From Leptogorgia sarmentosa (Eukaryota), in assembly GCA_964658305.1 (NCBI GenBank), contig OZ210885.1, forward strand, positions 744,001 to 808,000: a stretch of 64,000 nt of DNA, read 5' to 3'. How positions within the stretch are numbered: the stretch's first letter is position 1; each line of letters starts with the position of its first letter. A program made the position numbers and the translations under genes. The notes under the pieces are model-generated. The model was not told the DNA's origin, ran no database searches, and was given only the letters and a program-made list of their open reading frames with translations. This document shows, piece by piece, positions 1,173 through 64,000 of this stretch.

Positions 1173-1427
1173 GGCGAGTGCGGGAAGGCGAAGAATTGTA
1201 TAGAAATTTAACTGATGATGATAACTTCAAGTGTCCACAAAACTTTGCTCCAGTCTTCTTTCAAGAGGCACTAGACTCTCTCGACCCTGCCTTAAGAGCG
1301 CAAGCTCAAATGGTGTGTGGCAATGACCTCACGTGTCTCTTCGATATTGCTGCAACAGGAAATGTTGCTCTTGGGGAATCAACTTTATCCGAAAGCACTG
1401 AAATTCAAAATGACATTACAATCCTAG
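1173..1427 (+). CDS. Gene A exon: Cys-containing region following VWD (WRVREGEE...VCGNDLTCLFDIAATG)
   Basis: C-x4-CLFD-x3-TG motif as in MUC4/SUSD2-type post-VWD regions; near-identical to 33869-34123, which directly follows the VWD exons of gene B. Confidence 0.85.
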
Positions 1428-4400
1428 GTGAGCAATACGCGATTTAAATTATAGTAATAAGCAAAAATAGGTTGGTCATCTTTCGCATCTGCATGATATC
1501 TAGTGTTAGTTTAGGTCAGTTCAGGAAATTTTGTAAATTGTAGGAATTATTAGAGATCCATCACTTACCTATTTGTATTAATTTTTTGTTGCTTTTTTTG
1601 TTAAATTTCATTTTAATTTATTTTAATTTCTCCCTCAGGGTGGCATAGCTTAGTATGATTATTGTTGTTGCTTCTTATCACATCCTCAATGTATATAATT
1701 AATTGTTTTAATTCTTATATTATTAGTTTACCCTATTTTTTACATATATTTATTTTCACAAATATTTTACAGCGTAAAATTGATCCAATTCAATTAAATT
1801 ACTAATCGGTACTCATCCTGTTTACAACTGTGTACTCTACTAAGACTATCTACATTTACACTTAAGAAATTATTTAATTCCTCCTATAAACCACGGTTTG
1901 ACATGCATGTAATTAAAAAGATTTTAAGAATATGAACTCCACTCTTTGCATATACCATACTTTACTCAGAGTAACCAGCAGGACATGAACGATATCTTTC
2001 TTGCTACCCCTTGACCACACAAGCTCAGTGTTGAATATTGAAATTAATTGAAAATAAAGTCAAAAGTTCAATCCCTTTTCTTCCTTCCCTTCATTCTTTC
2101 TTAGAGAACAACGTACCTGTTTTTACCGAGAACATCACTGTGATCAATGTGACTTTGGGGGAGACGTTTGTATTGCGTTTAGACGCAACTGATGCTGATG
2201 GTGACCCACTGACCTTCGATGTTCCAAATCTTCCACCAAATGCGATGTTCAATTCAACAGGAAACATTCTTTATTTCTCCTGGAATGTAATTTCCGCAAA
2301 GGAGGTACTGATGTAATTTTTGGAAAAGGAAGGAAAATTTTCATTATTAAAATCTATAGCAACTAATAAAAATGTTCGATTATTGAATTTTTTAGACAAA
2401 CATTACGTTTTTAGTTCAAGATACAAGAAATGGTAGCTCCACATTCTCTCCTTCCATCACGCTTTGCCGTTGTGTCAATGGCGGCGAGTGTTTTGTTCCA
2501 GAAGCAACATCAGCGGAAACCGCAGCAGCAGTTTCTGCGTTTCTTGTAATGTCGTGTAATTGTCCAGTTGGTCGAACAGGGGAGTTTTGTGAAGCTGAAA
2601 ACGATTTTTGTCAAGGAGAAACGACTCCGCCATGTTTTCCTCTTGTTACTTGTACCAATAGTCCAACAAATTTCACGTGCGGTCCATGTCCCACTGGTTA
2701 TGAAGGAGATGGGATCACTTGCACAGGTATAAAAGAGACTTGATTTACTTTCGAATGTTCGATTTATATAATTATTATAGTTCATTTCCAAGCTTACATT
2801 TTAGGAATTTCGCTGCATAGTAATGCGTAAAATTAGTTATGTACAAAGATGTAGTTTCCTTCTCTTTTTGGGGCCTCGTAGAAATACTTTTGCACTCAAC
2901 AAAACTCACAGAGGAAGGCAAAAATTTGGCATTTTGCAATGCTTGGGCTGGCTAACAGTTTCGTAAAATATAAAAATACACAATATTCAAAGACAGTATA
3001 TTTGAAAATATATTGACCAGCATGCCTGAAAGTTTGGACTTTAAACCTGCGCTTAGCGGCCACGGTATTCCATAACAATGAAAAATCATAGAATTTGATC
3101 GAAAAGAAGAAAAGAAATCGAAAATCATACAACAGCATTCTGTGTACTGTGGAGCGAAATCAAGTTGCTTCAGATAATTAAATTTGAACGATTTTCCTAT
3201 ATAGGCCTAATAAACATTCGACTTGCTTAATTCTTTATTGAACCTATTTATTCAGTATAAAATAACCATAAAACATAGAGATGTCGTATAAAAAATGTTT
3301 GTAGGAAGACCTTTTGGTATATGCAGTTGTCGTGACCAGTGGATCGATTTGCTTTGTGCATTTTGGCAAAAAATAATTTTATCAACCTGGGGCCGGTTAT
3401 ATCATTTAGCTTAAACGGTGGATAAGCAAAATTTTAAAAACACTCCTATTCATTGTGCATGTAAATAATTGACCTGAATTTTATCAAATAATATTGTAGT
3501 TCCATGCAAAGTTGTTATGTTTAGACACAAAAGTTTGCTGGTAGTCAATAGTTCATAATTTTGTTTGATATTTTTTACTTACAGTATCCACCGTTTAAGC
3601 TAAACGGCTTTGATACAACCAGGTGATACAACCGGCCCCTGAACGTGAAGTGTGCGTGAGTGGAACATACGTGTCGAAAATACTTTCGTAATTTTGAAAA
3701 CTGGTTTACCTTATGCATACTTTACGATTTCTTAACCTCTTCAAATTTTAATGCTTTGTTTGTCGTGCATTGCTTTTTTTGGAGAATACGCAAGTAAGCT
3801 AAACGGAAGCCTCGGTAACTTTAAGCTCTTCGAGCGAGCAATAAAGGGGTCGCTTTCTATAAAATAGCAGATAATGCGCCATGCAGTTCACTGTTCACAA
3901 TTCGGCAGCTAAGTGTACATTTGAGAAGGAGTTTTATTTGAGACAAAGGAGTTGGTTAGAATTTGTATTTTATTAGAAAACCTACTTAAATTTGTGTCTT
4001 TGTTAGATCTTCTGTTTCGGCATTTTCTTGTTTTGAGAGTACTAAACTTCCCTTATGCATCAAAACAATGTGATTATGTGAAGTGTAAACAAAAAATGTA
4101 AATGTTCCTGTATTTGCTGACTTTCCAACGTGCAACTGATAATAATTTTATTTAAATTACCAGTCATATTTCTTTTAGATATTAATGAATGCAGCAGTAA
4201 CGCTACCAATGAATGTGATCAAATGTGTACGAATACTGATGGCTCTTATCTTTGTACATGTGGCAATGGTTTTTCTTTGGATCAGAATGGAAAAGTTTGT
4301 AATGGTATGTCAGTTTATCAGTAGAGATAATTAATAGACATAGCAAGGACGAAACTTACCAACTGATGTCTTAGACATGTGTTGGTCACTTTACTGTACA

Positions 4401-7400
4401 AAAACGTTAACCTTTCAAGGGTGAGGCCGCTGATCAGCAGAAAAACGTGAACGCGTATGAAGCAAAGTGCCAAAATCCTTCGTCAGGAAACTTTTCCTAT
4501 AAAAGGCTATAAAAGCTTTCTTTCCAAACTTCGAACTTAGTTGAGTTTACACATGTGTAGTTTCATGATATTATATAAATGGAAATATGTAGAGGGTACT
4601 ACACGGTGGTGCAAAGATATGAATTTTATCTTCGACTGGTGAAAGCAATATTTTACGAATGCGCGCAGCGAATGAATAAAATATCATTTTATCACGAGAA
4701 TAAAAAATTCATATCTTCAAACCGCCGTGTAATTTTCTATCTATTATATAGTCGGAAAGCCCACACAGTAAAAAGAAAAGGGCCATTTTGGCCCCATGGG
4801 GCCGTTTTGGATTTTCAAAGTGCGAGCCAATTTGGCGCTACTATAGGGTCAAAACAAAAAATAGGGGCCATTTTGGCCCAATCATGGGGCCGTTTCGGTT
4901 CCGATGTCCGAGCCATTTTGGCCCTATTGTAGTGCCAAAACAGCCAACAAGGGCCGTTTTGGCCCAATGGGGCCGTTATGGCTATTTCTAGGGCGAGCCA
5001 TTTTGGCCTTAGTATGGAGCCAAATCGGACGCAAGTGCCGTTTTGCATATAGAGCCAAAACATTTTTATATGGTTATATGCAGGGCGGTTCTGTTTAATA
5101 ATACTGAAGAACTGTTTTCGCTTAGTTGTTATCCAAATATCCTGTATGTATGTTTTGTCGGCAATATTAATTTTTGATCGATAATGCTGTATTTTTCAAC
5201 TAGTTGCATCAAATTATCTAAATTCAATGAATACCTGGTCATCGTTTTAGTGTTTTCTTGTAGCATTTGCATTTTCCGAACACAAATATGCTGCTTTTTC
5301 ATAGAACAAAAACAAATTGGTTCGCTGCTCGTAGACAAACGTCGCTATTTTTGAAACAAATTTATTGGCGCAAATTGCGATTGTCAATTGGCGTGATTGA
5401 CATCTTCATCAGTGAAGATATGGAAAATATCTCACTGTGTAGTTTTCGGTATCTCACTGTCTACTATATAATAAAATTGTGTATAGCTACTTTGAATTGT
5501 GCTATAATATAGCAACATTGTTGACGCAGCATTCAAGCAAAAACGGGAATGGAAAAAAAGACGAGAGAAAATGTAAATTCCATCAGGGCTTCTCTCTTAG
5601 TACTGAAAAGTTACTTTCAATTATTATGGCAAAAATAATTGTTCTCTCATTATTTTTTCTCTCAAAAATTTTTTCATTGCTCCAAAACTCTATGTCTGGT
5701 CTTGTTGATGTTTCCTGAATTTTTCAGATGTCGACGAATGTAATGGGGCAGATGACTGCGATCAACTGTGTAACAACACAATTGGGTCATACGAGTGCTA
5801 TTGCAGAATCGGGTTCAAAATCAACGAAACTGACATGACAAGATGTGAAGGTAATTGACTATTTCAAGATAATATAATACCAAAAATGATCTATAGGAAA
5901 ATCAAGTTAGTTGTTAGTTGACTGTAAATACTGACAATCCTCCTTGTGACGTGAAACCGAATTCAAATATTATTAAATGAAATGTTAATTAAAAAATTAT
6001 CAAAGCATGATAAAAAAAATAATTACGAGAAAAAAACGACTTATTATAGGTACAATAATTTAATTACAGAATAAAAATTTAGCCATAGAGTGTATTCGTG
6101 GATATGTGTAATTTCACGTAACCAATTATCATGAGAATATTCATTGAAACGACTTTCAATAAGTAAAAAATATTTTTTAGCTCTACTCGAATGTCCAAGA
6201 GAAAATGTATGCTCCGGGGAAAATGTGATTTGTTATATGGATATGTTGGACCCTGGGGTAGAAAAGTGTACTTGCCGTGCAGGATATGAACTTCAAGAGG
6301 ATCAGAGATCTTGTGCAGGTTTGTACATTAAACAATAGAGACCTTAAGATTGACGTTTTCTCTCGTTTCCCGCAAACGACAAACTTCAACTCGAGGTTTG
6401 CGGTTCGACGTTTGAGGGATGATATTTTCAAGATTTAAGATTGGCGTACTAAAGAAATCCGAGATGGCTTCCTCGTCCAGAAATCATAAGCAAACTTGGG
6501 TTTATGAAATATACATAATAATGTGATTTTTGGTTTACCATAAAACATTCTTTAAATAGCTAAGATGTTAAAGAGATTAAATTTATATCTTAAACATGAC
6601 ATTATATAATTTTAATGGTGTAAAAATGTTGCCGTAAGTCACCAACCTCAAGAACGCCTTCTTCCAGTAAAAACGGGAACCTCAAACCTCAGACGGACGG
6701 CAGGAGTTAAGTCACGTGACTTTTTGCGGTTCGCGGGAAACGAGAGAAAACGTCAATCTTAAGGTCTCTAATTATTGGATTCTTTGACCCTAAGACGGCC
6801 CGAACCCTAATCAGCCCTAACCCGGTCCTATAACCTTAAGATAACGGCAGATAACACAAACCGAACGTAACATAAACCAAATTCAATAATTGTTTTATTA
6901 GTTATTTCTATTTTGATCGGACTTAGGGTAAACGCTTGTGTTGTGAACAGGGTGAATTTTTCTGGGAGGAACCTTTCTTTCGTCCTAATGTCGCATATGT
7001 TTGATTTCATGCTCATGCACAAATCTTAACCAAACAGAACTGTTAAATTATTTTCAATAAATAATAAATACTATTATTATTTATTTAAAATAATTCAAAG
7101 GTTTTAATTGGTTAAGAGCAGTGGGTGAATTCGTCATATCTGCTCGATAAAACACATATACGACATTATGACGTAATCATGTCGTATATTGAAAATTATA
7201 TGACATTATGACGTCGACTAATTTATGCTGCTTATGTTAAAAGCGGTGAAAAATACACGTTCTTGTTTACAACGCAACCGTTTACACTAAGTCGGGTAAT
7301 AGTTATGTAGTTAAATGTTTCTAAAAAGAGGTCGAGATTTTCGTCAAGTTATGGTTGAGAGTATAAAATCAGAGATCAGTATTGAATAAAAAAATATCAG

Positions 7401-10400
7401 TCTGGAACATTGAACTAAAAATAATTTAGCGTTATTTTTAGTTCAATGATCTGGAAACGATTCGAAAATTATTGTTTATTAGTTATGGTGAAATGGATAA
7501 CCATGCAGTGTTAAAGCCAATTAAACTCCAGCATTGGCAACTGTATGAGCAAGAAAATTTAACTACGTTATAGTTAAACATTTAGCGATCAGTGTTGCTA
7601 TTTAATTATCCAATATACAACTATCTATTTTACTGCCTTCGGAGGAAGCACTTGTTATGGCTGTGTACTTTCTTCGGCTCGTTGTCAATATTTAAACATT
7701 AAAACAATCTAAATTTATAGCGTTTGTCTATATACTGATCTGAAAACTCATCATATGATACTATACTACTTTAATCCTTTTCCCCAACTTAAACTTCCAG
7801 TAAGACAACACGCACATTATAATCCTTACGTTTGCTTAATACGTTGTTTCATCACTAGTCTCAAAGAATTTGTAAAAAGGCAGGTCACGTTCCTTATAAG
7901 TTGAGAATTCAGTGATAAACTCGATCGTTATTTCAAAATTTTCCCATGTGGCAAGTCCGAGAATCTTGGGAACAAAACAAACAAGTTTGCTGTTTATTTA
8001 ATGAACTTGTTTAATTATTAAAACATCTTTGATTCGCTCATTTTTAGACATCAATGAATGTGCAACAACCGAAAGCAATCTATGTGATCAGATCTGCACC
8101 GACGTAGACGGAGGTTATACCTGCTCCTGTAGGGAAGGATTTGTTAGCAGCAGTGACACAGCTTGTCAAGGTTTTGTATTTTATTCATTTGTAGCATTAA
8201 TATGTTAAGTATACGTGATTCATCTTTAACGTTCCAGATTACCAGTTGACATTTCTGTTCATTAGAAAGTCTAGAAAATTGCACTAGTAGAAAATTAGAG
8301 CGAAATTTGCAATAATAAACAGCTGACCTTAACATTAATAAAAAGGCTGCTGAATAAAATTGTGGTCTATTATATGTTCAATTTTCGCGTGAGTGAGGTA
8401 TGGTATTGTAGAAATTGATACACCAGGCGTAGTTTAAAAATGAATATTGAAGCCAGCAAATAATGTTAATACCAAACATATTATAACAACAATTATTAGC
8501 CAATTTATTTGCTAACATTTCGTAATAAACACGTTAAATTATCAGGGGTCGGTTGTTCGTAGCCTGTTTAGCCTAAACGGCGGATAAGTCAATTTTAAAT
8601 TGCACTCCCAATCGCCTTGTGAGTAAATGAACATAAATTTTAAGCACTAAATATATAGTTGTATACATAAATGTTCCTTTCCGATTGAAGATTTTATTTT
8701 TATCGTTCAATGAATACATAGTCTTGTTTGATATTCTGGACTTATCCGCCGTTTAAGCTAAACGGCGTACGAACAACCGGCCCCAGAAATACAGTTGTGC
8801 CTCGTATAATAAATTCCTTATTGAATGGTTTGACATGCAATACGGCCTGGTATTTTACTCGTTTCTCGCATTTTTCTATGAAACTCGTAAAATACCAGGC
8901 CGTATTGCATGTCAAACCATTCAATAAGCTATATGTATATTATTAATTTTGTTATATGTGTGGTATTAAAATTATTGTGAGGTATAGTTTTTATACTAAA
9001 AGGGATATCTCACTTTGACCATAAATTAATATACTAATTTATTTTGACGAACTTCTTTTACTATTTTAATTTCCAACTCAACTTCTCTTTTAACCTGTTA
9101 CTGTAGACATAGACGAGTGTTTTGAAGGGAACTTCACTTGCTCTGGCGTTGAAGAATGTGAGAATCTCGCTGGAAGTTACAGGTGTTTGTGTCCAGAGAG
9201 GCTCAACATGGTCAGAGTCAATGGAACGTGTGAATGTAAGTGCTGCATGTAAATTAATTGGGGACAGTTTTCAAGTTGAATGTATCAGCGCCATTGAGCT
9301 ACCTACCATTGAGCTGTCCATCTGAAGACGGATCGTTACTTAAGGAGTACGTTTGATGTGGTAAATGGCTACAGTACTGACTTTCATGAGTTGCAAGTAT
9401 CTACATTGTTGTATGGGGTTATTAAAACTACCAAATCAAAGGTCGTTTAGGTCACTTAAAAATTCAGTTCAAGTTATTCCAACATCAAAATAATATTCGT
9501 TATCAAATAACGAATTGACTGTGAAAGTTCATTTTGATTCAGTAACGTTCTATAATACTGCAAATGTTCGCATGAATTTATGTGTTTGTAAATTTACTTT
9601 GGGCATGTTGATTTTGCCTTGTCATAAGACAACGATCTGTCTTTGGCATCAGGGACAACTAAATTTGTATATTATGCAACTTTGTGGATTTCGGTCTTTG
9701 AGGTGAGCCCATATTCCCGTATTTTCTGTCGAAGGATTTGTGTGTTTTAGATAGCTAGGCCATGTGCTCTGGCTGAATTGTCCATAAATATTGTTGGGAA
9801 GAAAACAAAATTGTGTTAGGGATGAAACGATGTGGAGTTTCTTGAATTAATGATACACTGCCTACATTTTGAATTCAGCAACCACCAAGCCTGAGGCGAC
9901 TAACTGTTTTAATATAAATTATATTTTTAAGCCTTAAATTATATCCTTTTATCCCATAATTATTTGTGCACTTTTTGAACTGTTGTTTACATCATAGCGT
10001 CAAAAACCTAGCTAAACAGGAAATTTGCATGGGACCAAGTTTGTTCTTTGTTGCATGTAATAACACTTTCAATATCTTCATTTATGATTGGTATTTCGTA
10101 TGATTGGTATTTTGTAATTATTGACCTCTCTAGAGGTGGCCATCGCCTAAAAGTGGGGCTTTTTTGACAAATCAGATTGCATGCAGGAAATGTTCTATTC
10201 GCATGAATTTATATACCAACTTGATAGGTCAAACAGAGTTAACCCTCTTTAAAATTCTCTCCACCAGTTAAAGACGAAGATACTGTAGAGGATATGGCAG
10301 ATCCTCCGCAAAATGCGACACAAGAACAGGAGGATAACTCTATTGAAATAACTTTGAAGAATTTTCAAAGTGAAAGCGTGAGTTTTTTATGTTTTAGAAT

Positions 10401-13400
10401 CTGTATAATTGTAGATACCTAATTTTCGTCTTTCGTCATATCTGAGAAAGACATTTCATACCTATATTGGAATTTGGCCGGCAAAACGTGAAATCGGAAA
10501 AAAAACATTTGTCTCAGCTGCATGACATTATAATATCTTTCATTTTTGCTCATCCAAAGTTATTTATCTTTCAGACAACCAGACCTTAACGCTTATCATT
10601 TTTTTTTAATTTTAGTACACCGTGGATGCTAACATCAAGTTTATAGATTCAGTTGTTCAAATAGTTAACGAGTTTTGTAATGAAAACAGATTTCGACCTC
10701 AAGATTGCGGCGTTTCCCAGTAAGTCAGAATAATTTTTTATGCTATCACGTTGCACTCATCGACCAATTTTTTTATATTTTATCACGTGACAGGAATACT
10801 AAAGTAAGTTAATTAATAGATGTGAAATTGTGATGCACGGGGCAATAATTTATTTTATACGTTTACAAAAATTTTAGTTGCTACTTTTGATGTGAGATAT
10901 ATGATGTGACATGATTGGAGTTACACCAATTTCAATGGCATGGACAAATCTATCGATCAATGTGTTAAAATAAAAAAAAATTAAGATATAGTATTAAATT
11001 ACGGGTCGAATGTTTTCCCACAAAAATATTTAGGTGATGTTTTCTACGACAAATATTAGATGAATTGCTTGGCATGAATTCTGTGCCTAATTTCATTCAA
11101 AAGTAACTCATGCGACGTATTTTAAGGCACTACTTTTCTTAATTCAACATACTGTATATACATAGTATTTACCGAATACCGACACATATTTTCTTTACTG
11201 ATAGAAACGAAATCTTATTCAACCAATTAAACGTGGAACGCCTGCCAGGCTATCCCCAAAACAGCGGTGTCAACACAACAATCAAGTTCTACGTTGATTA
11301 TCCAGAAATTGTAAGAACAGGATCACTTCCGAAAACAACACTGGCATCCATAGTGTTTGCCAAATTAGAGAGATTTCAAAATCTCACTGGTTATTGTATT
11401 ATTCTCAATACTCCTGTAACCCCAGACGCCCCGGCAGATCCAACTGATGATCAAAGAGATAACGCAATCGTGTTACAAATAATTGGCTTCAGTGAAGCTC
11501 AGGTATTAGCTATATCTGACACAGATTTTAGTAAAATATTATTCCGCACAGTTACACTAATGATCCATGCAACCAAAAACTTAAATTTGTGCCACGTGTC
11601 CAATAATTAAGATTTTCTGGCAAGAACCATGTCACTAGGAAAGTTCAGTGTCTCTCGGTTTTCCTCTGGGGGAAGGTCTTCGAATTTTGAAATATTCTGA
11701 ACGGGATATTGGACTTTTGAAATATCCTTCTTGTACCCAGTTTGCCAGTAGGCCGAGGGATATTTTGAATTCGAATTGTTAATAACTAATTTTTCCCTAA
11801 CACACTATAAAACACATCTAGCCAGATCATGTCAGCAAAAGAAATTCCGACAATGGAGAAAGTCTTTATCCACAAAAACGATCATTGGGTTTACGTATTT
11901 ACATACACAACCTGATTTATCATTTTTCTTTCTTTTCTTTCTTGCAGTGGACAATAAGTTATGATAACATATTCCGTCGTTCAGTCGCTCTTAGTCTGAC
12001 AAGATACTGCAACATTGAGAATGACGACTACCCTCGTACCCGGGACTGTGAATTCTCAGGGTTAGTGTGTTGCTGTTTTTTCTATGTGGTTATAAAGTGT
12101 TTGATTTTATCCCGTCATGAAAAGTTCAATAGAGCTCAAAAATTATACCTGATGATGTTTTGTTTCGCTGCTTGATCACAACTACCGGCGCGTGCGCAAC
12201 AATACACGATCATAGACAATTTATTATTATGCCTTCACTAAAATGAAAGGTGTCGAATATTTCCCTCGTGTGCTCAGAGGAAAGGCATCAGCTTCATCAG
12301 CGACGCGATATCCACACCTCCAACAACTGACCCCAAGGTGCCGGTAACAGCCGGTTGTTCGTAGCCGATGCATTTAGCTAATTAAACAGTGAATAAGTCA
12401 AAAATTTAAAATACACTTCCTTTCATCTTGTGAATACCTGAACATGAATTATACAAGTGTTCTGTTCCGATTGAAAATTTTTATTATGATGCATATGGTT
12501 CTCATTGAACACATGAACTTGTTTATATTTTGGACTTATCCACCGTTTAGGTTAATTAATGACATAGTGCATTTAAATTGCTATAGCTTAATGCAAAGTT
12601 GAAGCTCTTTCATTTATTATAATAAAATCTTATATAAAACTTTTCAGGTCGGTGACAAGCTATAACCTCACTCATGTTGCACGACTTCCTGGATATCCCA
12701 AAGACGCTGCATCGAATATTGTTAACGTTTCGTTTTATGTCACAAACCCGAGTACATCAACTCCAGTTCCACGAAAAGTACTTGCATCAATGTTGCTCAC
12801 TCAGGAGTCAATTTTAGAGAACGCGCTTTCTCAGCAAGTAGTATTACAAACCTTTGCTGGACCAGATACTCCACCAGTAGCAAGCAGTGAGCAAATTACT
12901 AACAGTGTTGTAATTCGAATATCGTCATTTTCACGAGAACAGGTATAGTATAAATTTGATACTTTGATTGATCATTTATATTAATTTATTTCTCGCGTGC
13001 GCTTTGACTGTTAACTATTAAGTTTATCTCGAATGATGCGCCGAATCTGTTAAATTCCCTGCTTGAATGCCTTTTTTTCGTTTTCGTTACAGTGGACATA
13101 TCTGAATGATCGCCGTTTAAGAAGAGCAATATCAAATCGGATTACGAACTTCTGTAACCAAACTAGCCAACGTCGTCTCGATTGCCAAATCACAGGGTAA
13201 AATATAATAATACTGATATACGGCCTGCGCATGCGTAATGGATGATCAACATGAACAAGCAGCGCACGTTTCCTTTCTCCTCAAAGACCCTTTCCACTTA
13301 TTCATGACGAATGGATTTTGAATATTTTTAGCGTTTCCCACGTTCTTCGGGACGTTACATCACGTCATATATATAGCATCTTATAATTATATACAATTTT

Positions 13401-16400
13401 TTCTTTTTGCAGTGACGTTGTGTTGTTCACGGAAACTGACGTGCACAGAACATCATCAGTCACGCCTTCTAATGTCGCTGGTAACAGTATCGACTACAGT
13501 TTTTACGTCAACTACCCCAATCAAAATGTTCCAATTGTTGGCAATATATTAGCATCGATTGTGAAATATGAATTGTTAAGAATGCAATCGGAATCTGCTC
13601 TTTTCTTCTCCCTGGAAACATCGTTCAGTCCTTATGCACCCTCGCCGCCAACATCAGATCAGTCCAGCAATACTGTACTGATCAGGATTTTTAATCAAAC
13701 GTCTACTGAGGTATGTAATCTTTATAATGTTTGCCCTCGTTTAAACGTATACCATATTCTGTTCCACACACGTATATTCGTCCCATATTCGTTAATTTTT
13801 CGTGTAAACATAAACAAACTCTCATAATAATGAGTAATGACAACTTCTGTTCAATTGACTTTTTCTAATTTCCTTGCAGTGGACGGCTATTAAAGACAAC
13901 AGATTCAGAAATTCAATATCAAACCAAGTTGGTGCTTATTGTTCAGATTGTTTGATTGCGTGCGTCCTAATGACAAGGTAATATAAAGACCGTAAAGTCT
14001 TAAAGTTCAGACAAACTGGCTAAGCGCTGAGTGCACGAGACATGTGATCATTGCTTCTGATGCAATATTTCCCAGAATATTATAGCGGCAATACCACATT
14101 ACATTTTAACTCCAAATATTGCTACCAAAATATACTTTCTACCAAATTGCCCTGATTATTCTGTAAAATAATGGTTTAAAATGAAATTGAATATATGTAT
14201 ATTATGTAATTTGTTAGGTATGCATTAGTTATGATTATGGTAAAATCAAGTATAAGTGACATGTTTATTAAATATTCTGTATTATTTTAGTGACCTGACA
14301 TCGTTCTCACCATCAAACGTGACTCGGAATCAAAGTTCCCCTGTGCAAGATGGATATCATGTCATTTATACTTTGTTTGTTGACTATCCATCTGGCAGTG
14401 GACCAATTCAGCAAAATTTACTGGCAGCCATTTTAACTATTCGACTTGAAAATATTGAGAACGAAACCAATATGAGACTTGAAATAATCACATCAATTCT
14501 GGCACCGTCTCCTCCTGCTGCCGACTCAAATAAAACTGACGAATCAGTAACCATGGTAGCACGTAATATTAATGCCTCGCAGGTAATTAACAAATATAAC
14601 TTCGTTGAGGCAATGAGACTGAATTACTTTTATTTCACGAAATATCTTGGAATCAGAAGTATACCAACTGTATACTGATTGTGAATACACCTCGAGGGAG
14701 CTCTGTATTCAATTATACTATTCTTTGTGTTCATTTGAGATAGTTCGTGGACGTTTCCACTGGTGATTTTATTCTGCATGCAATAAGTAGTATTCCCAAC
14801 ACCAATATAAAGTCTTCAAGGCTTCGGCCATATCAGCTATCACCTCATAGAAATCTGGAGTTCATAACCTAATTAAATTGTTTTTCTGTTTCAGTGGTCA
14901 GCCATTCAAGATAACAAATTCCGTGGGTATGTTGCCCAGGCAATTGGCGAATATTGCACAGCAAATGATGCACAACGTGATGAATGTGACCTTCCCACGT
15001 ACGTTTTTGACTAATTTATCTCATTTTATCACTTCCTATACTACTCCTGAATCTAGGAAATGGCTAATTTATTTTAATTTATTCATTTAGAAGAATTATT
15101 ATATCCTTAATATCTATATAATTATTCTTTGCCTGGCGTTTGTCGTTTGACGTTTGAACGTGTAGCTTAAACTCTCTAGTTATAATTCACATAGCGGAGA
15201 CGTTTGAAAATTAGAATTTCTCACCACAAAAGTATGTATGAATGTTTGCCGACCTCTTACTGTTGTTTTAATAAAGTTTTCAAATACTCGCGTTTTTCAT
15301 CCTTCCATATTATGCGACATTAGATGGCGTCACCATTTTTGAAGCTGCTCAAAGATTAAAAGATTATTTATTCGGTTGCATGACAAACAAGAAATTTCGG
15401 AAATATCACAATTTTTCTATTAGCTATCACTTTGTGGTTTTCAAAAAATTTGTGCCCGTAAATTTAGGCATCTTTCTGAAGTTAACGTTTCTTCACCTCA
15501 TTAAACACAGACGGTAGAAGTGACCTTTTTTGATAAAACTGAGTTGTTAATAATTCTTGATATCAGAATGAGTAAACTGCATGTAGTCAATGACAAAATC
15601 AAAATGCGGTAAAGTTGCACTCGCTACCTGAATTATAAAACAAGATGCAACGTTCTCTAGCTGGGTTCTTCGTCCGGAATTTGTGTGGGTGGTCGAGAGA
15701 AAGTACCCGTAATTTAAAACAAATGCACCACACATGTTAAAATAACATGTGACAAATTTAAAAGTGGTTGAACCAACAATGTATTAAGGCATCATATAGT
15801 TTCCTTTTTATTTCCAGGCCAAGAAGGAAAAAACGAGCTGCAACGTAAGTGCATAAGCTAACTTATTTCACTTCAAGAAACTAGTGACCTCCATGTTCTT
15901 TAAATTATACTACCACTGGGTGATATTGCCTCTTTTATACTTCCCAGAGTAACGTGGCAAAACTTTATGTTGTGCCTTCAAAACTGGGAGCTCATTTGCA
16001 TCCCCTCCCCTGATCTACCTTTACTCTGCATTCATATTTTATTCTCTTTAGAAATGACGCTTCGTTTACACAAGATCACGTCCAACGTGTCCCAGGTTCA
16101 CCCTCACAAGATGGCACTGATTCTGAAATCGAATTTTATGTTAATTATCCTGGTGGTGGTACAATGTCTAAGGAAATTTTACTTTTGATCATGAATGAGA
16201 AAACCGACTCTATTGCCAATAATACTGAAATGGCTCTTGTGTTGATAACTCCCGAATTTCCAACACCTCCTCCAGCAACACGCAGTCAAAATGAAAGCGC
16301 TGTCTCTGTTGTATTGAAGAATTTCCAAGTGGGCGAGGTTTGTTTGTCTAGAAATTAAAAAGAAGAAATTAGAAATTAGTGTCCGATCGACACTGTTGAG

Positions 16401-19400
16401 CTTCAAGTTTAAAAGCTCTGTTTGCATGCATCGTCTACACACTTACAATTTTTGCTGCGAAATTTCTATAGTACGGTTGTCTCCTTTTGATCGATGTAAA
16501 CGGGAAAACCAGTCACGAATTTTCCAGCGAAAACATGCACTTAGCGTGTTTGTTATCATTCTACTCAATCACATCATTCAGAATGAGAAAATCGTAAGCG
16601 CGGCTTTTGCCAGCACACAGTAATCAGAGTGATAATTTGTTGATAACCAAGTTTACCCTCACCTAACTCCCAGGCCGAATGACGTAATGGTAAAAAAGGT
16701 GAATACAAACAAAGCGTCAAGAAGAAATGTAAAACAATGTAAAATGTCCAAATTTTGGATGAGATAAACGATAGCTGTAACGACAACTATAACAATGTCA
16801 ATATGTAGAGTGACGTTAACTTATTTCAAACTTGCCTGTTCTTTTAGTGGCCTGCCAGAGATTTGCCGTTCCGACAGAATATGGCCAAAGAAATTCAGGA
16901 CTTTTGTAGCACTTATAACACTCTTTGTAACATCACAGTGTGAGTATTGTAATATCACAGCATTATAGACATCGTTTCTCAATTCCGAGCAAGTCTCATG
17001 GTTGCAGGTTCTTACGTATTATATACTATACTGTAACAGCAAATGTAAGAACAAGTTGTTAAATTTAACATTAATTACAAATGCTCGTGTGAGTTAATTT
17101 TCATAACATTACTGAATCACTTTTTCCATTAATTCGTGTTGTTCAGATCTGTGTAGTTGTACATAATTACTCCCTTTGTCAGCGATATTCGTTTCTCTTT
17201 CAGTGACGACCTGAACAGCCTCACAAGTGCTGACATTCAAAGACTGCCAGGTTCTCCAACACAAAATGGCACCAATTCAATCCTCAAATTTTACGCACAG
17301 TTGACAAGCGGTAGAGTTATTCCTAAAACCATCTTGGCCACCATCTTCGTAGAAAGACGGGAAAAAATATTTTCACTTGACAGCAGTCTGGAAGATTTCA
17401 CAGAAAGTTTTACATCTGATGAAACAGTTCTTACTGCAGAACAACAACAAAATACAGTTCCTATTAAATTAATCAACTTTCCTCGTTCAAAGGTGAGTGC
17501 AGCAGCTCTGGGATGGTTGATTTGTTGGTGTTTGAGGTGTATACGTATTTCTGATTTATTCAGTCCCATTTTTCGCAAAATGTGCCTTCTTATAAAACTA
17601 TGTTTGTCTGAAATGAAAAAAAATTCAATACAATTTTGGAAAGTTGTTTTTAATTTTGTTGACACAACCATGAGCAAAATTTGGTTTTGTGGTCATATAT
17701 TTTCTTAAGTATTTTTATTTATATATTAACGTTGAAAATTCAAGCCATTTTGTTAAATTACACTTCACATGAAATATATTTCATCGTGATTATGTTACGT
17801 TGTGTTCCCTTGCTAATATAGTTCACATCCTTGCGAAAGATGGATATCAAAGCGTCAGTTGCACGAAGAATGAATATCTTTTGCTTTACAACAGCTGCAG
17901 ATACGTGCGGTATTACAAGGTAGGCATATGTACAATCAATTTCTACCATTTTTAGAACATGAAATGCACAACAGGAATAAGATTTTGTGCAACAGATAAT
18001 GAATCTTGTTGTATGAAAATATAATTAGGTCTAATGTAATGGTGTCCTTCTTGTTAATAATTATTGAAGAATAATAAGTAAACTGCAGTCATTGCCGAAA
18101 TGAAAGTGATTGACGAACTCTGGGACGTTATAAGGCATCATATTTCTTTTTATTTCCAGGCCAAGAAGAAGAAAGAGAAATACGAAGTAAGTGCATCACC
18201 TAAATCATTACAATTTCAACTCGTGAAACTAGTGACCATTGGTTTTTCCAAAAACTTTAATATTAGTGACGGATCTTAATTGAATATAAAGAATGTGGTG
18301 TTGCGACAAAATAATGAAAGATGATAAATAACATTTTTCACTGGAAGAGTGTTCGTTCTACTTTGGTGTCAGTGTAGCAACAAGGCGGCAACGTCAAATG
18401 GTATATCTACTTCAACACTGAGGAGGTCTCGATATAACTATAACATTTGACATCGTTTTTTAATAAAAAAATCATAGCTAATCTTGCCATGTTATTGTAA
18501 GTACCAACCATCCGTCGATCTATACGTACAAGAGATAATAGATAACAGAAATAATACAGAAATAATAGATATATTATATACGTACTTCAATATAGCAGAA
18601 GCTCAGGGGCCGGTCAGTGTGCGAAAGTCGGATAACTTTATCCACTGGATAGTGATTTTTTTAACTGTTGTAAAAATGACGCACCATCTAGGATCTAATA
18701 AATGCAATTAAGATCTAAATCAATTACATCTCTAAAATGCTCACATGTATTTCCAGCAGTGAACAATTCAGTGAAAATGACGTCATAGTTACCGACTCCG
18801 TCATGGCAGCCGGAAATGATACAGTTATCAATGTTGTTGTGAACGAACCAGGAGAGAATAACTCAGTTCCAGCTAATATTGTTGAAGAAGCAATGCGTGA
18901 ATCCATTGAAACTGATAACACATCACTCATTACTGGTTTACAACTTGCTCTTGTTAATACACCGGAAGTAATTACAACCAATCAACGTTCCAACGCAGTC
19001 AGTGTTCGCTTACCAAACACTCAGGCGAGTGAGGTGAGTTGATTCATTAATCATTCAACGAAACTTCTCAAACAGGTAGATCAAAGATTGGGTGAACATG
19101 GCTATAAGGTTAATCCTCCCATACTTTAACAATTTGAGAATGGAATTATGGAAATAGTTTTAATCCTGTGTTATTATTTGCACTGAAATTAAACCATGTT
19201 GTTCAAATGAATACATTTTAGTGGCAATTTGAGGATGAAATATCATTCAGAGAAAATATGTCGGAAGCCATTAAACAATTTTGTGTAATGAGTGCGTTAC
19301 ATCTGGATTTGTGTGGCCTTACTAGGTATGTATAACTATTAAGGCATTATTAAGGGTTGCGATTGTTCAAAGTTCAATATTTGGCCATAACAAACGCTAA

Positions 19401-22286
19401 TTCCAACAAGGAGCAAAACGTCTACTCACACATAAATATGACACATTAAGTGTCGACGTTTCGAGCACTGATTCCCGATGAATGGCCTTAAAACGTCTAA
19501 ACGTATTGTGTCCCATCGTAGAACTTGTTGGTGATCTGGATCAATGTGAAGTTTTTATCTCTTTGGCGTTGTGAGATATACAGAAATATAATAATTATAT
19601 ACATGCACCAAGTAAAATAAATCAACATTAACTAAATTATCAGTTGAAAACTGAATTATCAGCCTGTATGTGCCATCTCCTTTATATCGTAGCTATATCT
19701 ATGCAGATCAACGTTTTCAGATGCTGTTGAGTTCTCCCTGCTAAGAGTTCTCCCTGCTAAACCGTTAAGGTTTTTGCATAAAATATAAGTGTGAAGAAAC
19801 GGCTTAACAAAATATTTCATTATAGTGCTCAAGTTAATGAAATCCAACCCTTGAATGTGAGGACATTGCCTGAATCTCCAAGTCAAAATGGAACAGACAC
19901 CATACTGTCGTTCTTCGTGGATCTGCCCAGTGGAACAACTATGCCTTTGGATGTTTTAACAACAATATTCAAGTCATCACCAAACATCCTTTCACAACCA
20001 AACAGTGTTAGCTCAGCAACAAGCGAAAACGTTAACCCTGTGCTTACAGATGCTGAGACTAAAAACCTCGTTCCATTGTCCATAAATATCCCAGCAAACC
20101 AGGTAAAATATCCCCAACATAATAAGTTTCTTCCAACTTTGGAATCAATATTTCGAGCTTTTATCGCCCATACTAGTTTTTTTTTTAAATAGATTTAGAA
20201 AACACGACGCGACGTCAAAGACCACGTGAGCATGGCGTGCGTTGCACATGTAGTGGACATGCCACGACAGTTGTATTTTGTCTTTGACGTCGCGTCGTGT
20301 TTTCTAAATCTAGCTAATGATGAACTAGAATTAAATTCTGTACAAATGGATATAAGATTTAGATAAGACGAGAAAATTTACTCCAATTAAACAAAAAAGT
20401 TTGACTGTTTCTCAAGAAGCTCGATTCCCATAATTATCATAATTATTCAAACCTGAAGCATTTTTTGCGCTTTAATTAACGCCGTTTTAACTGTTCATAA
20501 TTATAATTAAAGTGTGGTTTGTTTTTTGTTAAAAATATGTAGTAACGCTATTATAACAACACAATTATTGACCGTAATTATCGGTGAATGTTTCCAGGAC
20601 TTATACGGAGGATTTATTTCGACTTTGGTAAAATAATTATCGTTTTATAGCAAATTTCGGAAAAAAATACATTGCCTTTGGCATTGTCAGGAGAGGACAA
20701 TTTCAAAGTGACGACAAAATTCCATCACTGAAAACGTAAATAATTTTCAACTTACCAGCGCCCTAACACAGCATTTCAGTACAACGTTTACTAAAAATCT
20801 GCATGATTCATTGCGATATTTATTTTATGTTGGTTTGTTTTTGCTTTCCTAATCTACTTCAATTATTATCAAAATATCTTTCTTTCGTTTCAGGATGTAA
20901 GACTGGATATTCAGGTTTCAATAGCGCACAGACTCAATGAATATTGTAAAAACAATTCCCAAGCTGAACTTTGTCCCAGCAGTCGGTACGTGATATTATG
21001 ACACAACTAATGTTTTTGCTATAAACATAGGTAGCCCAGCGCACGCATGACGTAGTATTCATAATAATACTATACTAATGAATACTACGTCATGCGTGCG
21101 TTGGGCTACCCTATATGGTTATGAATGACAGTTGTTGTACATTTTAATACAAAAATGCACAGTGAGTTGTCATATGGAATATTGATTTGAGATGATAATT
21201 ATGCAATCATAATTATAATCTAATGATCAGAATTTTTGCCACAATGATCAGACAAGCCTGCCCTATCATGCCACCATTTTCAATTTAGCGAGGAGCGAGT
21301 GGTAAATAATAATAATGTTTTTACGAATACAACAGTGTACAAAATATATGTTTAGCATTAGGCTCGTTGACATTTGTAACTGAAAAATTAACATTTATAA
21401 AGCAATGTACAAAATATATGTTTAGCAATTAAGTTGCAAAACAGCCGGAAACAAAAAACCTGACCCGGCCTCACTTCAGAAAAATTGTGAGAAAGAGATA
21501 GGCGTATAGGTATGCACATTTTGTCTAATATTTCTATAATTTCTACGCTTATTTATTATTATATCAGGAACTTCACCAAAGATGATATTCGTGTTGTTAT
21601 TCATCGTAACAATGGCTCTGTCAGTTTTGTGGTCACTGATCCCGATACTGGATCAACACTTCCCGTGAACCAAATACAAGAAGCAATCAGTGGAAAGTTC
21701 AATTCCATAATTTACGGTCTACCACTCACAGTGTCTGCTAACGTTGATGATGAAGAAGATGAGGACTGGCCATTGATAATAGGATTAAGCATTGCTGGAG
21801 CATTTATGTTTTTACTTCTGATTGTTTCTGCGATTTATGTGTAAGTTCACTGTTTGTTTTTAACAATTTAAGAACGAGTCGCGTGTTTTTTATAGTGTAA
21901 TTATGCAATTAATGTTAGGAAATGTTTAAAACCATAAATTGCTTTACTTCTTCAAAAAGAAGAAGGAAAAAGCTTTGTTTTTTGTGTTAAAATTTGTCGA
22001 TACGATGAGATTCGATCTGTGTGCTGTTTTACATTACACACTGCGAAAATGTCACCTTTCTATCTTTTGTATCGACTAAAATGTTGTTTATTTATTTTTT
22101 AGCATGACAGTTCGTTCTGGCAAAGTACAGGGTAAAGTAAATCTAGGCTGGAGACGGTCTGTCTATTCTGGTCATTCTGATGGCGGTTGGCAATTCGACA
22201 GAAATTCACCATACACTGGGTCACCATTTTCAGAAATTGATGGTATACCCGGCTTTGATGCTGATGGTCTGCCATCAAATATTTAG
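1173..22286 (+). CDS. Gene A (5'-partial, spliced): mucin-4/SUSD2-like type I membrane glycoprotein: VWD C-terminal region, cadherin/Ig-like domain, 7 EGF, 9 SEA-like modules, TM, cytoplasmic tail
   Basis: Frame-consistent GT-AG exons: 1173-1427, 2105-2304, 2396-2726, 4179-4304, 5728-5850, 6181-6318, 8048-8170, 9107-9235, 10268-10377, 10616-10719, 11205-11502, 11948-12060, 12648-12942, 13093-13196, 13413-13710, 13880-13977, 14291-14582, 14895-14998, 15818-15844, 16052-16337, 16848-16939, 17204-17492, 17822-17919, 18160-18186, 18757/18760-19033, 19222-19325, 19826-20102, 20894-20985, 21568-21840, 22103-22286 (TAG). Nearly all have a counterpart in gene B. Confidence 0.88.
2105..2726 (+). CDS. 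Gene A exons: cadherin/Ig-like domain (NNVPVF...ATDADGDPLTF) plus two EGF-like domains
   Basis: N-x2-P-x-F and A-T-D-x-D-G-D cadherin-like motifs in 2105-2304; CVNGGEC...CNCPVGRTGEFCE and a second 6-Cys EGF in 2396-2726. Confidence 0.85.
3387..3641. mobile_element. MITE, family with ggggccggtt...aaccggcccc TIRs
   Basis: TIRs plus internal inverted tttagcttaaacggtggata/tatccaccgtttaagctaaa; relatives at 8543, ~12349 and ~41221. Confidence 0.75.
4179..9235 (+). CDS. Gene A: five phase-1/1 EGF exons, four with the calcium-binding consensus
   Basis: 4179-4304 DINECSS, 5728-5850 DVDECNG, 6181-6318 ALLECPRE, 8048-8170 DINECATT, 9107-9235 DIDECFEG; 6-Cys spacing with C-x-N/D-x2-G-S/G-Y-x-C-x-C. 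Confidence 0.9.
4587..5475 (+). mobile_element. Non-autonomous dispersed element (5' hairpin, 3' end ...atataataaa) with a nested GC-richer insert
   Basis: Hairpin 4601-4730 (acacgg..aagatatgaatttt / aaaattcatatctt..ccgtgt); absent from the equivalent gene B intron. Confidence 0.55.
4762..5062 (+). repeat. Degenerate minisatellite-like array of ggggcc(a/g)ttttggccc motifs
   Basis: About ten imperfect copies of gggcc(a/g)tttt(g)g; resembles subterminal repeats of a DNA transposon end beginning cacacagtaaaaag. Confidence 0.7.
6337..6769. mobile_element. MITE with ~36-bp perfect TIRs (agagaccttaagattgacgttttctctcgtttcccgc), flanked by AAT on both sides
   Basis: TIRs read directly; AAT at 6334-6336 and 6770-6772; absent in the gene B paralogous intron. 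Confidence 0.85.
8543..8786. mobile_element. MITE, ggggccggttgttcgta TIR family
   Basis: ggggtcggttgttcgtagcctgtttagcctaaacggcggataagtc ... gacttatccgccgtttaagctaaacggcgtacgaacaaccggcccc. Confidence 0.8.
8817..8928. repeat. Perfect 42-bp inverted repeat with a 28-nt spacer (foldback remnant)
   Basis: 8817-8858 is the exact reverse complement of 8887-8928. Confidence 0.9.
10268..21723 (+). CDS. Gene A: nine tandem ~135-aa SEA-like modules, each a short phase-0/2 exon plus a long phase-2/0 exon
   Basis: Short exons (10616, 11948, 13093, 13880, 14895, 16848, 17822, 19222, 20894) share W-x6-7-F-R-x2-V/I-A/S...F/Y-C-x5-13-C. Long exons share V-x-R-L-P-G-x-P...F-Y-V...L-A-x-I...N-S/T-V-x-I. The repetition is seen directly; the SEA fold is inference. 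Confidence 0.75.
12349..12555. mobile_element. Degenerate copy of the 8543-8786 MITE family
   Basis: gccggttgttcgtagccg ... ttttggacttatccaccgtttag; internal sequence similar to 8543-8786. Confidence 0.6.
15818..15844 (+). CDS. 27-nt microexon encoding a furin-type site (T)PRRKKRAA(T), gene A module 5
   Basis: tttatttccAG|gccaagaaggaaaaaacgagctgcaac|GTaagt; phase 2/2, frame-preserving; R-x-K-R consensus. Confidence 0.8.
18160..18186 (+). CDS. 27-nt microexon encoding a furin-type site (R)PRRRKRNT(N), gene A module 7
   Basis: tttatttccAG|gccaagaagaagaaagagaaatacgaa|GTaagt; phase 2/2; equivalent position to 49953, 54729 and 59505. Confidence 0.82.
20190..20312. mobile_element. Short MITE-like element with perfect 33-bp inverted arms
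   Basis: tagatttagaaaacacgacgcgacgtcaaagac / gtctttgacgtcgcgtcgtgttttctaaatcta. Confidence 0.8.
21028..21113. repeat. Short palindromic MITE-like element
   Basis: ggtagcccagcgcacgcatgacgtagtattcat / atgaatactacgtcatgcgtgcgttgggctacc, one mismatch. Confidence 0.8.
21568..21840 (+). CDS. Gene A exon: end of module 9, acidic juxtamembrane stretch and transmembrane helix
   Basis: ...NVDDEEDEDWPLIIGLSIAGAFMFLLLIVSAIYV, a ~24-residue hydrophobic run; donor gt|GTAAGT at 21841. Confidence 0.88.
22103..22286 (+). CDS. Gene A terminal exon: cytoplasmic tail ending ...DADGLPSNI*
   Basis: Polypyrimidine tract plus AG at 22101-22102; phase 2 matches the TM exon; stop TAG at 22284-22286. Confidence 0.7.
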
Positions 22287-28246: not shown

Positions 28247-31200
28247 GTCCTACAAGAGATCCTGATGAGGGAAGCGGGAACGGATTTGGTAAATTAAAAC
28301 ACATTTCTATCTATAAACACAGAACATCATAATTATATGTAAATGTTTATCTCGCATCCAGAAATGCAAAATACTCATTCAATGATCAAAGTAACCGCAC
28401 ACAGAATTCAGAGTGAATCTTAGGAGATATAATCATAAAAAGAAATGCCTGTTTGTCTCACACACTTCAAAACATCTGAAAAGTTGCTGTTTTGAAATTT
28501 GTCAGCAGCAGATAATTCCTATCTTTTGAGACAGGCTGTATTGGTGAATTTTTTGTGATAAAAACTACGCAATTTGCGCTATATCTATGATCTATCGAGC
28601 ACTCTTTTTACATTTAATAATCACCAACCAAAACAGCAGACGGCGCAGCAAACTAACAGATATCTTTCGCTTTCTTTAGGCCCAGTGCCGCCATTACCCA
28701 TCCCAACAAACACCACCCCTGTTCCCTTTGATGGTCGTTGTACCAGGTTTTCGCTTCCAAAACTTGGATTGTGGTTCAATGGGATAAATTTCAGACGTCT
28801 TTCGGTAAGTTACATTTCTTCAAAGATTTGACTTCATCAAAGTAGCCATTTTCCAGCTGATCTGGGCAGGACAACAAGTTTTAAAACGAGCGAGCTGAAA
28901 TTATAAATCAAAAGATGCCTCATTCTACCAATTTCTTCTAATAAACGTCTTTTTTTCGGTTTAAAACGTATAGAATTTGAATGATAAAGAGAACGGTCAC
29001 TATATTATACTAGCCTTATTTTTGATTTTGTAACAGAATATATGGCGATTATCAATACTGCGAATTTAAAAATTTACCAATCACACAGTGGGCAATAAAA
29101 ATTGTTTATTTTCGACTCCAAATTTTCCTTTCCAGGTTTGTCCGAACGGATTAGTAAGGTTTCGCGGGCGCAGGTTTCAGCCCAATCCACGAAATTTTGG
29201 CACCTATCGCAACCAACGATCTTTTGCCTTACTCGCTCCTTACTGGTGCAATGCTGATCTGAATTCATTTGAAACTGGAGACTCGCAGGTGTTTTTTTAT
29301 ACAGTCACAGTCGAGAACCAAGAAGAGAACACGGAACTGTTTGACATGGCTAGGGAATATGGTAACACGCTCTTAAAGAAAGTTGATTACGATCCATTGT
29401 GGGTTGGTGTTGTTAGTTGGCACAATCTCCGACCAAACAATCCTGGTAACTTTGAGCCCGTAAGTACTACCCGTGATAATGGTATTTATACTCTACCTAG
29501 GTGCAATTTTGTCTCAAACGTGCCACTGCTGCGTAATTAACTGCAAATCAATAAATTTCACTTTGAACTATTTAGTTTTCTGCTTTACCTCATCATCGAA
29601 CAAATTACGTAATTATTTTTTTCAAGTAAAGATTTTTTCAGCTTAAAAAGTAATCAATTATTTTGTCATTTGATAAAACAACCGCAAACATTTTCTTTCT
29701 TAGAAAAACTGTTTTGATATGTTACTGGCAAACAGCGTTTTGGATGAGACGATTGTCGTGTACAGATATGTTGATATAACTTGGGCTGTAAAGGCATCCA
29801 GGTATACGAATAACTTATTTTTTGAAAACAGTGCATGTACTGTATATAAAAAATAGCTTCTAAAACGCCTTTTTACATTTCTTGTTATAATTATAATGAT
29901 AACTATACTACTGGGCCGGACACCTTCCTCTGGGACTTGAAGATCACGAGCTTGATCACTGACGAACAACAGAACATGTTAATTCAGGGTGTCCCAGAAG
30001 AAGAAATCAATGCATTGTATGAATTAAAATGCCCTGCCCTTCTACATGGTGTCCCCCCCAAAAAGTCACCTCTTTGAAAATCAGCTTTTTTGTTGTCAAA
30101 CGTGCGTTGTTATGCCTTTGAGAATATAATTGAATGGTTCATGAACGACAGTATTTATAACAGCACGCGCTTTTGTTTAAGTTCGTCAGAAGGTAATTTA
30201 AATTTCCAGAGGTGTAATAACCCGATAACGAAAGAGTGACTTCATTAGAGGGGACTTTTTTAGTACACCCTAAACCTAGGAGTGCATGAAGATTGGGATA
30301 ACTGTCGTAATTAATGATACATTAAAAATGCTGGACATTCAAATTCAAAGTTCAAACAATGGTGTATTTTGATTCTCACTTTCTTTCAAAGGACATAATA
30401 AATAGTTGCGTGTATAAAAACGATGTTTTAAACAAAATAGACAACCACGCCCCTGTGCTTGATGATGGACTAATATCTTCCTATTTTTTAGTGACAATTT
30501 GGCAAATTTTCAAACAGCTAGTGATCTACCAGTCATTGGTTTTCGCATTGGATCGTTATTTCAAAACTATGCAGGGTAAGATTATAATTATTCACACTTT
30601 AAAAATAAATCCTACCCAAATGTAGAAGACGTTTGGGTTTTCATTCGCTCAAACGAACGGTGACATCATGCATCATTTCCCATGAGTAGAAAAACCCTGG
30701 TGTTCTTGCCCAACATTAAACCTGGGCAAGAGTATATAAACGTGGAAAATATAATGTTGTTTTTAATGACATCCATTATATTTGTAATAATATGGTTTTT
30801 ACTTCAAAAAGTATCGTGCTAAGTATCGTAAAAGCTACACAAAGGTACATAGTCAACACGAATTAAGAATAACACGTTTCAAATCCTGAACAGGTGGAGA
30901 ATTAGCATGTTGGTTTGGAAATAATAAAATTTTAATGTAGAATCTATTATATTGATTTACGTTAAAGATCTGGTACTGTGAATGTCTCAAACGTGAACGA
31001 TTTCTCTGGACCGCTGCTGGGGAGGCCTGGACAGATTGGGATCGTTCTCAACGATGGGCAATCAATAACGCTGTGCAATAAATGGTTAAATGAACAATGC
31101 CGTGAGGGTCGTGGAGCATTACAGTGTCCACTACCTTGCCCTCCAACTTATAGAAAACTAAGGGTTACAGTTGGATTTGATTTGAGGTACCGATATAGGA

Positions 31201-63948: not shown

Positions 63949-64000
63949 GTGAGTGTAACAAGTCTGAAATTAAATTTGTCCGACGTTTAGCGAATGAGTC
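62970..64000 (+). repeat. Intragenic tandem unit copy 4 (truncated by the window end)
   Basis: Matches 57524-58554; exons 63150-63250 and 63660-63948. Confidence 0.92.

Follow-up and report, generated by a model that had tools for sequence, protein, structure and literature searches.

A predicted stalk of nine SEA-like modules, with a putative furin-type site in the seventh, in a MUC4-like octocoral membrane protein

The window analysed here, a 64,000-nt stretch of Leptogorgia sarmentosa DNA, likely encodes in its first gene (gene 1) the nine-module extracellular stalk of an octocoral MUC4-like type I membrane protein. The modules are predicted to be divergent SEA-like domains with a ferredoxin-like fold. 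The best explanation, and the one that seems to us probable, is that this stalk is cut by a furin-type enzyme in module 7, leaving a non-covalent joint that would release the outer part of the protein under pull. It builds on features read directly from the sequences: exon structure, open frame, repeats, transmembrane (TM) helix, conserved module order, Cys pair, and module-7 motif.

All features described here lie on the forward strand. Twenty-two exons were modelled between positions 10268 and 22286; all 22 acceptors are AG, and all 21 internal exons have a GT donor. The array exons form an open frame of 1280 codons with its stop at 22286. Nine short exons (92-113 nt), each entered in phase 0 and left in phase 2, are interleaved with nine long exons (273-298 nt). 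These junctions and this frame bear out the preliminary description, which had seen nine diverged repeats with constant intron phases of 0 then 2. The short exon (S) codes for helix 1 and the Cys pair of a module; the long exon (L) codes for the remaining module, the linker, and strand 1 of the next module.

The array opens with the modelled exon E0 (10268-10377; phase 1 to 0), which holds the linker and strand 1 of module 1. Module 1 (10616-11502) comprises S1 (10616-10719; helix 1 and Cys pair) and L1 (11205-11502; strands 2-3, helix 2, strand 4, linker, and next strand 1). There follow module 2 (11948-12942; S2 11948-12060, L2 12648-12942); module 3 (13093-13710; S3 13093-13196, L3 13413-13710); module 4 (13880-14582; S4 13880-13977, L4 14291-14582); module 5 (14895-16337; S5 14895-14998, L5 16052-16337); module 6 (16848-17492; S6 16848-16939, L6 17204-17492); module 7 (17822-19033; S7 17822-17919, L7 18760-19033); and module 8 (19222-20102; S8 19222-19325, L8 19826-20102). 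The membrane-proximal module 9 (20894-21840; S9 20894-20985, L9 21568-21840) is short, and its long exon also encodes the TM helix. The last exon (22103-22286) encodes the cytoplasmic tail and the stop. (The tail ends in an acidic/aromatic G-F-D-x-D-G-L-P motif that is kept in the homologue records P0047, P0048, and P0049.)

Most gene 1 modules are 127-139 aa long, close to the ~135 aa first proposed; module 9, with 104 aa, departs from that figure. Modules 1-6 and 8 are clearly alike, with mutual identities of 24-38% and local-score z values of 5.5-33 (against 200 shuffles). Divergence is greater in modules 7 and 9, which score z 13-14 against each other, with module 9 below 3.5 against the remaining modules. 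A profile of 57 modules finds module 9 at 46-62 bits. The repeat relationship proposed in the preliminary description is strongest among modules 1-6 and 8, modules 7 and 9 giving the weaker signal. Its motif pattern stands as a consensus, individual motifs occurring in 3-9 of the nine modules (RLPG in 3/9, FYV in 4/9, LA-x-I/M in 5/9); the Pro-rich linker is confined to modules 1-5 of gene 1. The two Cys columns hold C in 56/57 and 57/57 modules, spaced x6-x12 within a module, and the pair presumably closes the loop after helix 1. The many sequons remarked on earlier are indeed present (23 in the array), but composition explains their number (shuffle mean, 17.8; 223 of 2000 shuffles equally high), and sequon enrichment was rejected. 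A third Cys in module 4 (C-x2-C-x3-C, within 13880-13977) is common to P0047 and missing from the tandem paralog, gene 2.

Gene 1 exons at 1175-9231 encode a MUC4-type C8-3 domain (Pfam C8-3_MUC4, E 2.8e-14), an Ig-like domain, and an EGF array, supported also by tblastn of the homologue P0042. The window starts inside gene 1 at the C8-3 exon, and these three elements are the part of the gene 1 head that it contains; the NIDO, AMOP, and VWD exons fall before position 1 and are seen only in gene 2 (~29100-33700) and in homologues. The gene 2 head (29115-39438) has NIDO, an AMOP-like exon, a VWD beginning with GDPH, C8-3, an Ig-like domain, and an EGF array; the MUC4-like set of NIDO, VWD with GDPH, C8-3, and EGF recurs in the homologues. 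NIDO scores 22.4 bits in gene 2 (cut-off 25) and 38.7 bits in P0048. GDPH is the cleavage motif of MUC4. A Cys-rich exon between NIDO and VWD of gene 2 (30966-31469) is AMOP-like by eye; Pfam AMOP had no match at E<=1 in gene 2 exons or homologues. The NIDO-AMOP-VWD-EGF head of the preliminary description therefore holds for C8-3 and EGF in gene 1 and for NIDO and VWD in the paralog and homologues, with AMOP lacking a Pfam match. The N-termini of P0048 and P0055 look signal-peptide-like by eye, and the modules sit extracellularly between the head domains and the single TM helix. (A GC-richer repetitive stretch at 4752-5095, in an EGF-region intron of gene 1, gives rise to overlapping spurious ORFs.)

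The fold was modelled with AF2 on modules 2-3 of the D. gigantea protein P0039, which are orthologues of modules 2 and 3 of gene 1 (thus neither the window's own modules nor module 7). The input was a 26-row alignment containing one misaligned short row and a few misaligned ends. The model reached pLDDT 89.1 and pTM 0.78, with the order of strands and helices alike in both modules; exon L2 folded alone gave a confident yet incomplete fragment. In a Foldseek search with this model, all 10 matches at E<=0.001 were ACE2, most of the matched ranges ending at ~710-731 and one spanning 614-730. The ACE2 neck was reportedly counted as SEA-like by Pei and Grishin in 2017. VIA, run on the Foldseek matches, placed the ACE2 neck first (Z 12.9, rmsd 2.4, 106 residues), then CELSR1 (11.9), PCDH15 (11.8), Nup54 (10.5), CDH23 (10.0), and IA-2/phogrin (~8); unrelated folds scored 6 or less. 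Run against 48,161 chains, it gave PCDH15 MAD12 (Z 10.8; rmsd 2.0, 101 residues), CELSR1 (10.0), CDH23 MAD28 (9.7), a nuclear-pore chain (9.3), and IA-2 (7.7), with the best unrelated chain at 6.8. Among these, PCDH15, CDH23, and IA-2, like Notch and dystroglycan, are described as SEA or SEA-like in PMC6586460. The AlphaFold and Foldseek check proposed in the preliminary description thus supports its SEA/ferredoxin-like fold, with the ACE2 neck as best match. Identity of the modules to their best structural matches is 9-25%. Against the SEA-like reading, canonical SEA domains score low (MUC16, Z 6.0-6.7). The 48,161-chain comparison also listed GPR126, the dystrophin glycoprotein complex, and Notch2, which together with the MUC16 SEA lie at 5.6-6.7.

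By sequence, the modules appear to have no link to a characterised SEA family that passes a cut-off. Pfam SEA (PF01390) had no match among the exons, the full homologues, or five whole modules, and the autoproteolysis motif (G-S followed by three hydrophobic residues, between strands 2 and 3) is present in 0/57 modules. Single-exon Pfam scans gave no module match above cut-off; exon L9 reached 13.7 bits (E 0.051) against Pfam Collectrin (PF16959; cut-off 27.1), and whole module 9 of P0047 had no Collectrin match. A whole-module profile reached PCDH15 only at E 1.2. PDB sequence searches with the queries A1, A4, A5, A7, and exon L9 gave no significant module match (A5 gave EGF matches among the best 60 of 81). 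The family PF26284 is precomputed on 6/6 array-bearing octocoral search matches; it is the only family on P0039, a protein made almost wholly of modules. P0049, with two related modules, does not have it among its listed families. Pfam scans of octocoral homologues run in this analysis did not report it. PF26284 is presumably a domain of unknown function (DUF8077); a literature search on both names found nothing.

Spliced octocoral proteins (Dendronephthya, Xenia, Paramuricea, and P0047) share these modules and their order. The spliced gene 1 product is 67% identical to P0047 (2236 aa) over 1286 columns with 25 gap positions; at 7628 nt for its 2236 aa, the P0047 record looks like a transcript. 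One-to-one module matches in D. gigantea and P. clavata are 47-64% identical. The yield of the searches varied with the query: single exons against 1.84 billion representatives gave 23 matches, all of single-exon length; exon L5 as homologue query gave one unspliced ORF; a profile of 35 exon sequences found three spliced proteins among 7992 candidates, all octocoral; and the P0042 head region found nine among 7989. The 57-module profile counts 9 modules in P0039, 10 in P0042, 10 in P0046, 9 in P0047, 9 in P0048, and 11 in P0056.

A tree built from 67 modules over 118 columns (without gene 2 modules 11-18, P0039, P0040, P0055, and P0056) clusters modules by position across species. The groups for positions 1-5 and 8 are starred; support is weak for those of 7 and 9. 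Blocks of modules have been duplicated in three lineages. The tenth modules each group, at starred support, with the module 6 from their own lineage, so the extensions arose separately or were homogenised, and one common origin of the tenth modules was rejected. Since the gene 2 junction is unlike the other two, at least two extension events are needed. In D. gigantea and Xenia (P0042, P0046, P0055, P0056) there is more than one gene copy on a contig, and extra copies resembling modules 6 and 7 follow module 9. Xenia isoform X1 closes with a Thr-rich stretch ahead of the membrane helix. A more distant D. gigantea paralog, P0049 (XP_028400186), has two modules with EGF repeats between them and the same tail motif; it is possibly closer to the state that preceded expansion of the array.

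A 27-nt microexon, m7 (18160-18186; phase 2-2), encodes PRRRKRNT, a predicted furin-type site, at the S/L junction of module 7, after helix 1 and its Cys loop and ahead of strand 2. The R-x-K-R motif is found in module 7 of 8/8 genes that reach this module (genes 1 and 2; P0039, P0042, P0046/P0056, P0055, P0047, P0048; two pairs among them are near-copies); spliced records from D. gigantea and Xenia show it, as does P0047. The eleventh module of Xenia, a copy of module 7, also bears R-x-K-R. Within the 57-module set, the sole loop site outside module 7 is in module 5 of gene 1: a candidate microexon, m5 (PRRKKRAA, 15818-15844, 27 nt, phase 2-2), within a ~360-nt insertion (15544-15903). The insertion resembles the module-7 intron of gene 2 (73-84% identity) more closely than the corresponding intron of gene 1, which suggests copying between paralogs; the splice signals of m5 are intact. 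The candidate m5 is present in DNA contigs, and missing from gene 2 intron 5 and from module 5 of spliced homologues; its symmetric phases would make it skippable without change of frame. Two weak candidates for microexons in other S-L introns, neither with a basic site, were rejected, as was an R-L-R-R of module 3 located within predicted helix 1.

The position of m7 matches that of the convertase site in KIAA1549, in which furin or a related convertase cuts the third SEA-like domain in the loop before strand 2, most SEA domains being cut between strands 2 and 3 (bioRxiv 2025.08.18.670743; the KIAA1549 cut also PMC13570299). The correspondence is one of reported loop position. By this analogy, a furin-type convertase probably cuts module 7 at its R-x-K-R loop. 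Both proteins would then have tandem SEA-like domains lacking the autoproteolysis motif and a convertase site before strand 2. They differ in that the KIAA1549 site is in the last of three domains and the coral site in the seventh of nine, and in that KIAA1549 carries a long O-mannosylated head segment and the coral protein a NIDO-VWD-EGF head. The preliminary description had compared the loop with KIAA1549-type modules; the comparison holds for the placing of the basic site, and membership of that family is at most a possibility. Pfam KIAA1549 (PF12877) had no match, Atlas feature matches to KIAA1549 were 0.76 and 0.82 (below the 0.9 level, a lead only), KIAA1549 is missing from the rows of the fold search, and the closest solved structure is the ACE2 neck.

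These features suggest a model for the stalk. The array, replacing a PTS stalk, would hold the NIDO-(AMOP)-VWD-EGF head some 35-45 nm off the membrane (estimated at 4-5 nm a module). A convertase would cleave the R-x-K-R loop of module 7 in the secretory pathway, and the two halves would remain joined through their shared sheet, since ferredoxin topology places strand 1 among the inner strands. Shear or tension would then part the joint, shedding the head and six modules into mucus or matrix. Release under load is proposed by analogy with MAD12, which is mechanically weak in simulation (bioRxiv 460097), and with other SEA-like domains, described as force-gated proteolytic switches (PMC6586460). 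Finally, duplication of phase-symmetric exon pairs together with the microexon would alter how long the stalk is and how many cut sites it has. One observation counts against a mechanical fuse: chains with duplicated units have several sites, more than a single fuse would call for.

The chief rival keeps the fold and the cut, and has furin shed the ectodomain constitutively: the soluble head and six modules would work in mucus, mesoglea, or skeletal matrix, with no mechanical joint. The authors of the KIAA1549 study expect furin processing to lead to ectodomain secretion (PMC13570299), an expectation that speaks for plain shedding rather than for a joint that holds; likewise, NIDO-AMOP-VWD proteins are part of the skeletal matrices of octocorals and scleractinians (PMC7853314, PMC7533068, PMC4890752). 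However, the site is placed by the model topology inside a folded domain, between interlocked strands, rather than in a free linker. Moreover, the octocoral skeletal proteins of PMC7853314 and PMC7533068 are described there as Sushi-domain or SUSD2-like, and that domain has no Pfam match in the homologues. We regard constitutive shedding as improbable, if still a serious competitor.

The structural matches suggest a further alternative, in which the array serves chiefly for dimerisation or binding, as a scaffold that zips two parallel chains, with cleavage secondary. The ACE2 neck, itself a dimer interface, and MAD12 match best, and every module position keeps its own sequence across species, as position-specific contacts would require. 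MAD12 itself induces parallel dimers (bioRxiv 460097). However, a shared fold shows no function, identity to these matches is 9-25%, and the duplication of whole module blocks in three lineages also counts against it. This alternative appears less probable still than constitutive shedding.

The held-joint stalk that we favour is made of parts with known counterparts. The ACE2 neck (collectrin-like, PF16959), PCDH15 MAD12, CDH23 MAD28, CELSR1, and Nup54 resemble the predicted fold at Z 9.3-12.9, and in the membrane proteins among them the domain is extracellular and above one TM helix, as are the coral modules. Those proteins have one copy; the coral array has nine or more, with a Cys pair after helix 1 and different heads. 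MUC4 and cnidarian mucin4-like proteins share NIDO, VWD with G-D-P-H, C8-3, an EGF array, and one TM helix. Human MUC4 is without SEA, whereas the coral proteins have 9-18 divergent modules after the EGFs, and gene 1 has no PTS stalk between EGFs and membrane (array S+T content, 19%). MUC16 has tandem SEA domains with Pro/Ser/Thr linker repeats, each with a conserved Cys pair (PMC10829539). Its C-loop, however, is 19 residues (Cys59-Cys79; PMC10829539), against 6-12 directly after helix 1 in the coral loop; the structural match is weak, and no furin microexon is described in the accessible part of that paper. The likeness to the MUC16 array is likely convergent.

Relatives of the NIDO-EGF type in other animals have one, two, or nine canonical SEA matches (amphioxus and hemichordate, one or two; P0054, nine). 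P0054, a Logan record of 3193 aa, has NIDO, GDPH, C8-3, and EGF, then nine canonical Pfam SEA stretches and a TM helix; it is the same layout made of ordinary SEA domains, in another animal. The 57-module profile had no match to the canonical SEA domains of five non-octocoral relatives (best E 0.067). For several anemones, MUC4-like proteins ending in one C-terminal SEA have been described (PMC9080433). Anemone, octocoral, amphioxus, and hemichordate relatives and P0054 all have SEA or SEA-like domains above the membrane, which adds a case to the question, discussed in PMC9080433, of whether MUC4-like proteins once carried SEA domains.

The feature is real and its component parts are of known kinds. 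Paper searches, whose coverage leaves out most subscription papers, found no description of the octocoral array or of its basic microexon. The earlier suggestion that the architecture may be undescribed thus stands for the array and its cleavage cassette, and is narrowed by PF26284 on the modules, by the anemone proteins in PMC9080433, and by the relatives with one, two, or nine SEA domains. The analysis gives a repeat left unexplained by sequence libraries a predicted fold and a likely site of processing, in a protein family linked to coral mucus and skeletal matrix, and offers a case, amenable to testing, of a cleavage site carried from one domain to another on a microexon.

Gene 2 extends the pattern. 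Its array (40218-63948) has modules 1-9 and then tandem 4.78-kb units of modules 6-9; up to the window end it holds at least 18 modules and three basic, furin-type microexons (49953, 54729, 59505), with no stop. The repeat runs beyond the window, so the TM exon of gene 2 is outside view. The four-module units (47968-64000) are 97.6-99.7% identical, and a chimeric exon (52418-52649) joins them: the start of L9 is fused to the end of L7, and S6 follows. Contig depth over the unit is ~2-3 times that of gene 1 stretches; since the depths come from a single sample and do not measure copy number, they do not establish three copies of the unit. Between genes 1 and 2, dN/dS is 0.64 (Fisher p 0.01), which indicates only mild constraint.

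A broader reading is possible but doubtful: that the 27-nt furin-site microexon is a portable, skippable cleavage cassette in octocoral SEA-like domains, copied from module 7 to module 5 and multiplied with exon blocks, so that duplication and splicing tune stalk length and break points in a programmable stalk convergent with that of MUC16. The opposite view, that the basic microexons are unused in this organism or the modules an inert spacer, and that the extra gene 2 units are an assembly overcount, could appeal to m5 as a recent insertion absent from paralog and homologues and to the 99.7% identity of units 1 and 2 over 5960 nt, but is very improbable given the module-7 motif in spliced records, the recurrence of the chimeric junction in separately assembled contigs of all three runs (one sample, perhaps the one from which the window itself derives), and the extensions that Xenia and D. 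gigantea bear of their own. The third gene 2 unit contains a unique segment of ~670 nt (60600-61280), possibly a mobile insertion, with a 47-nt inverted match at 44651-44697.
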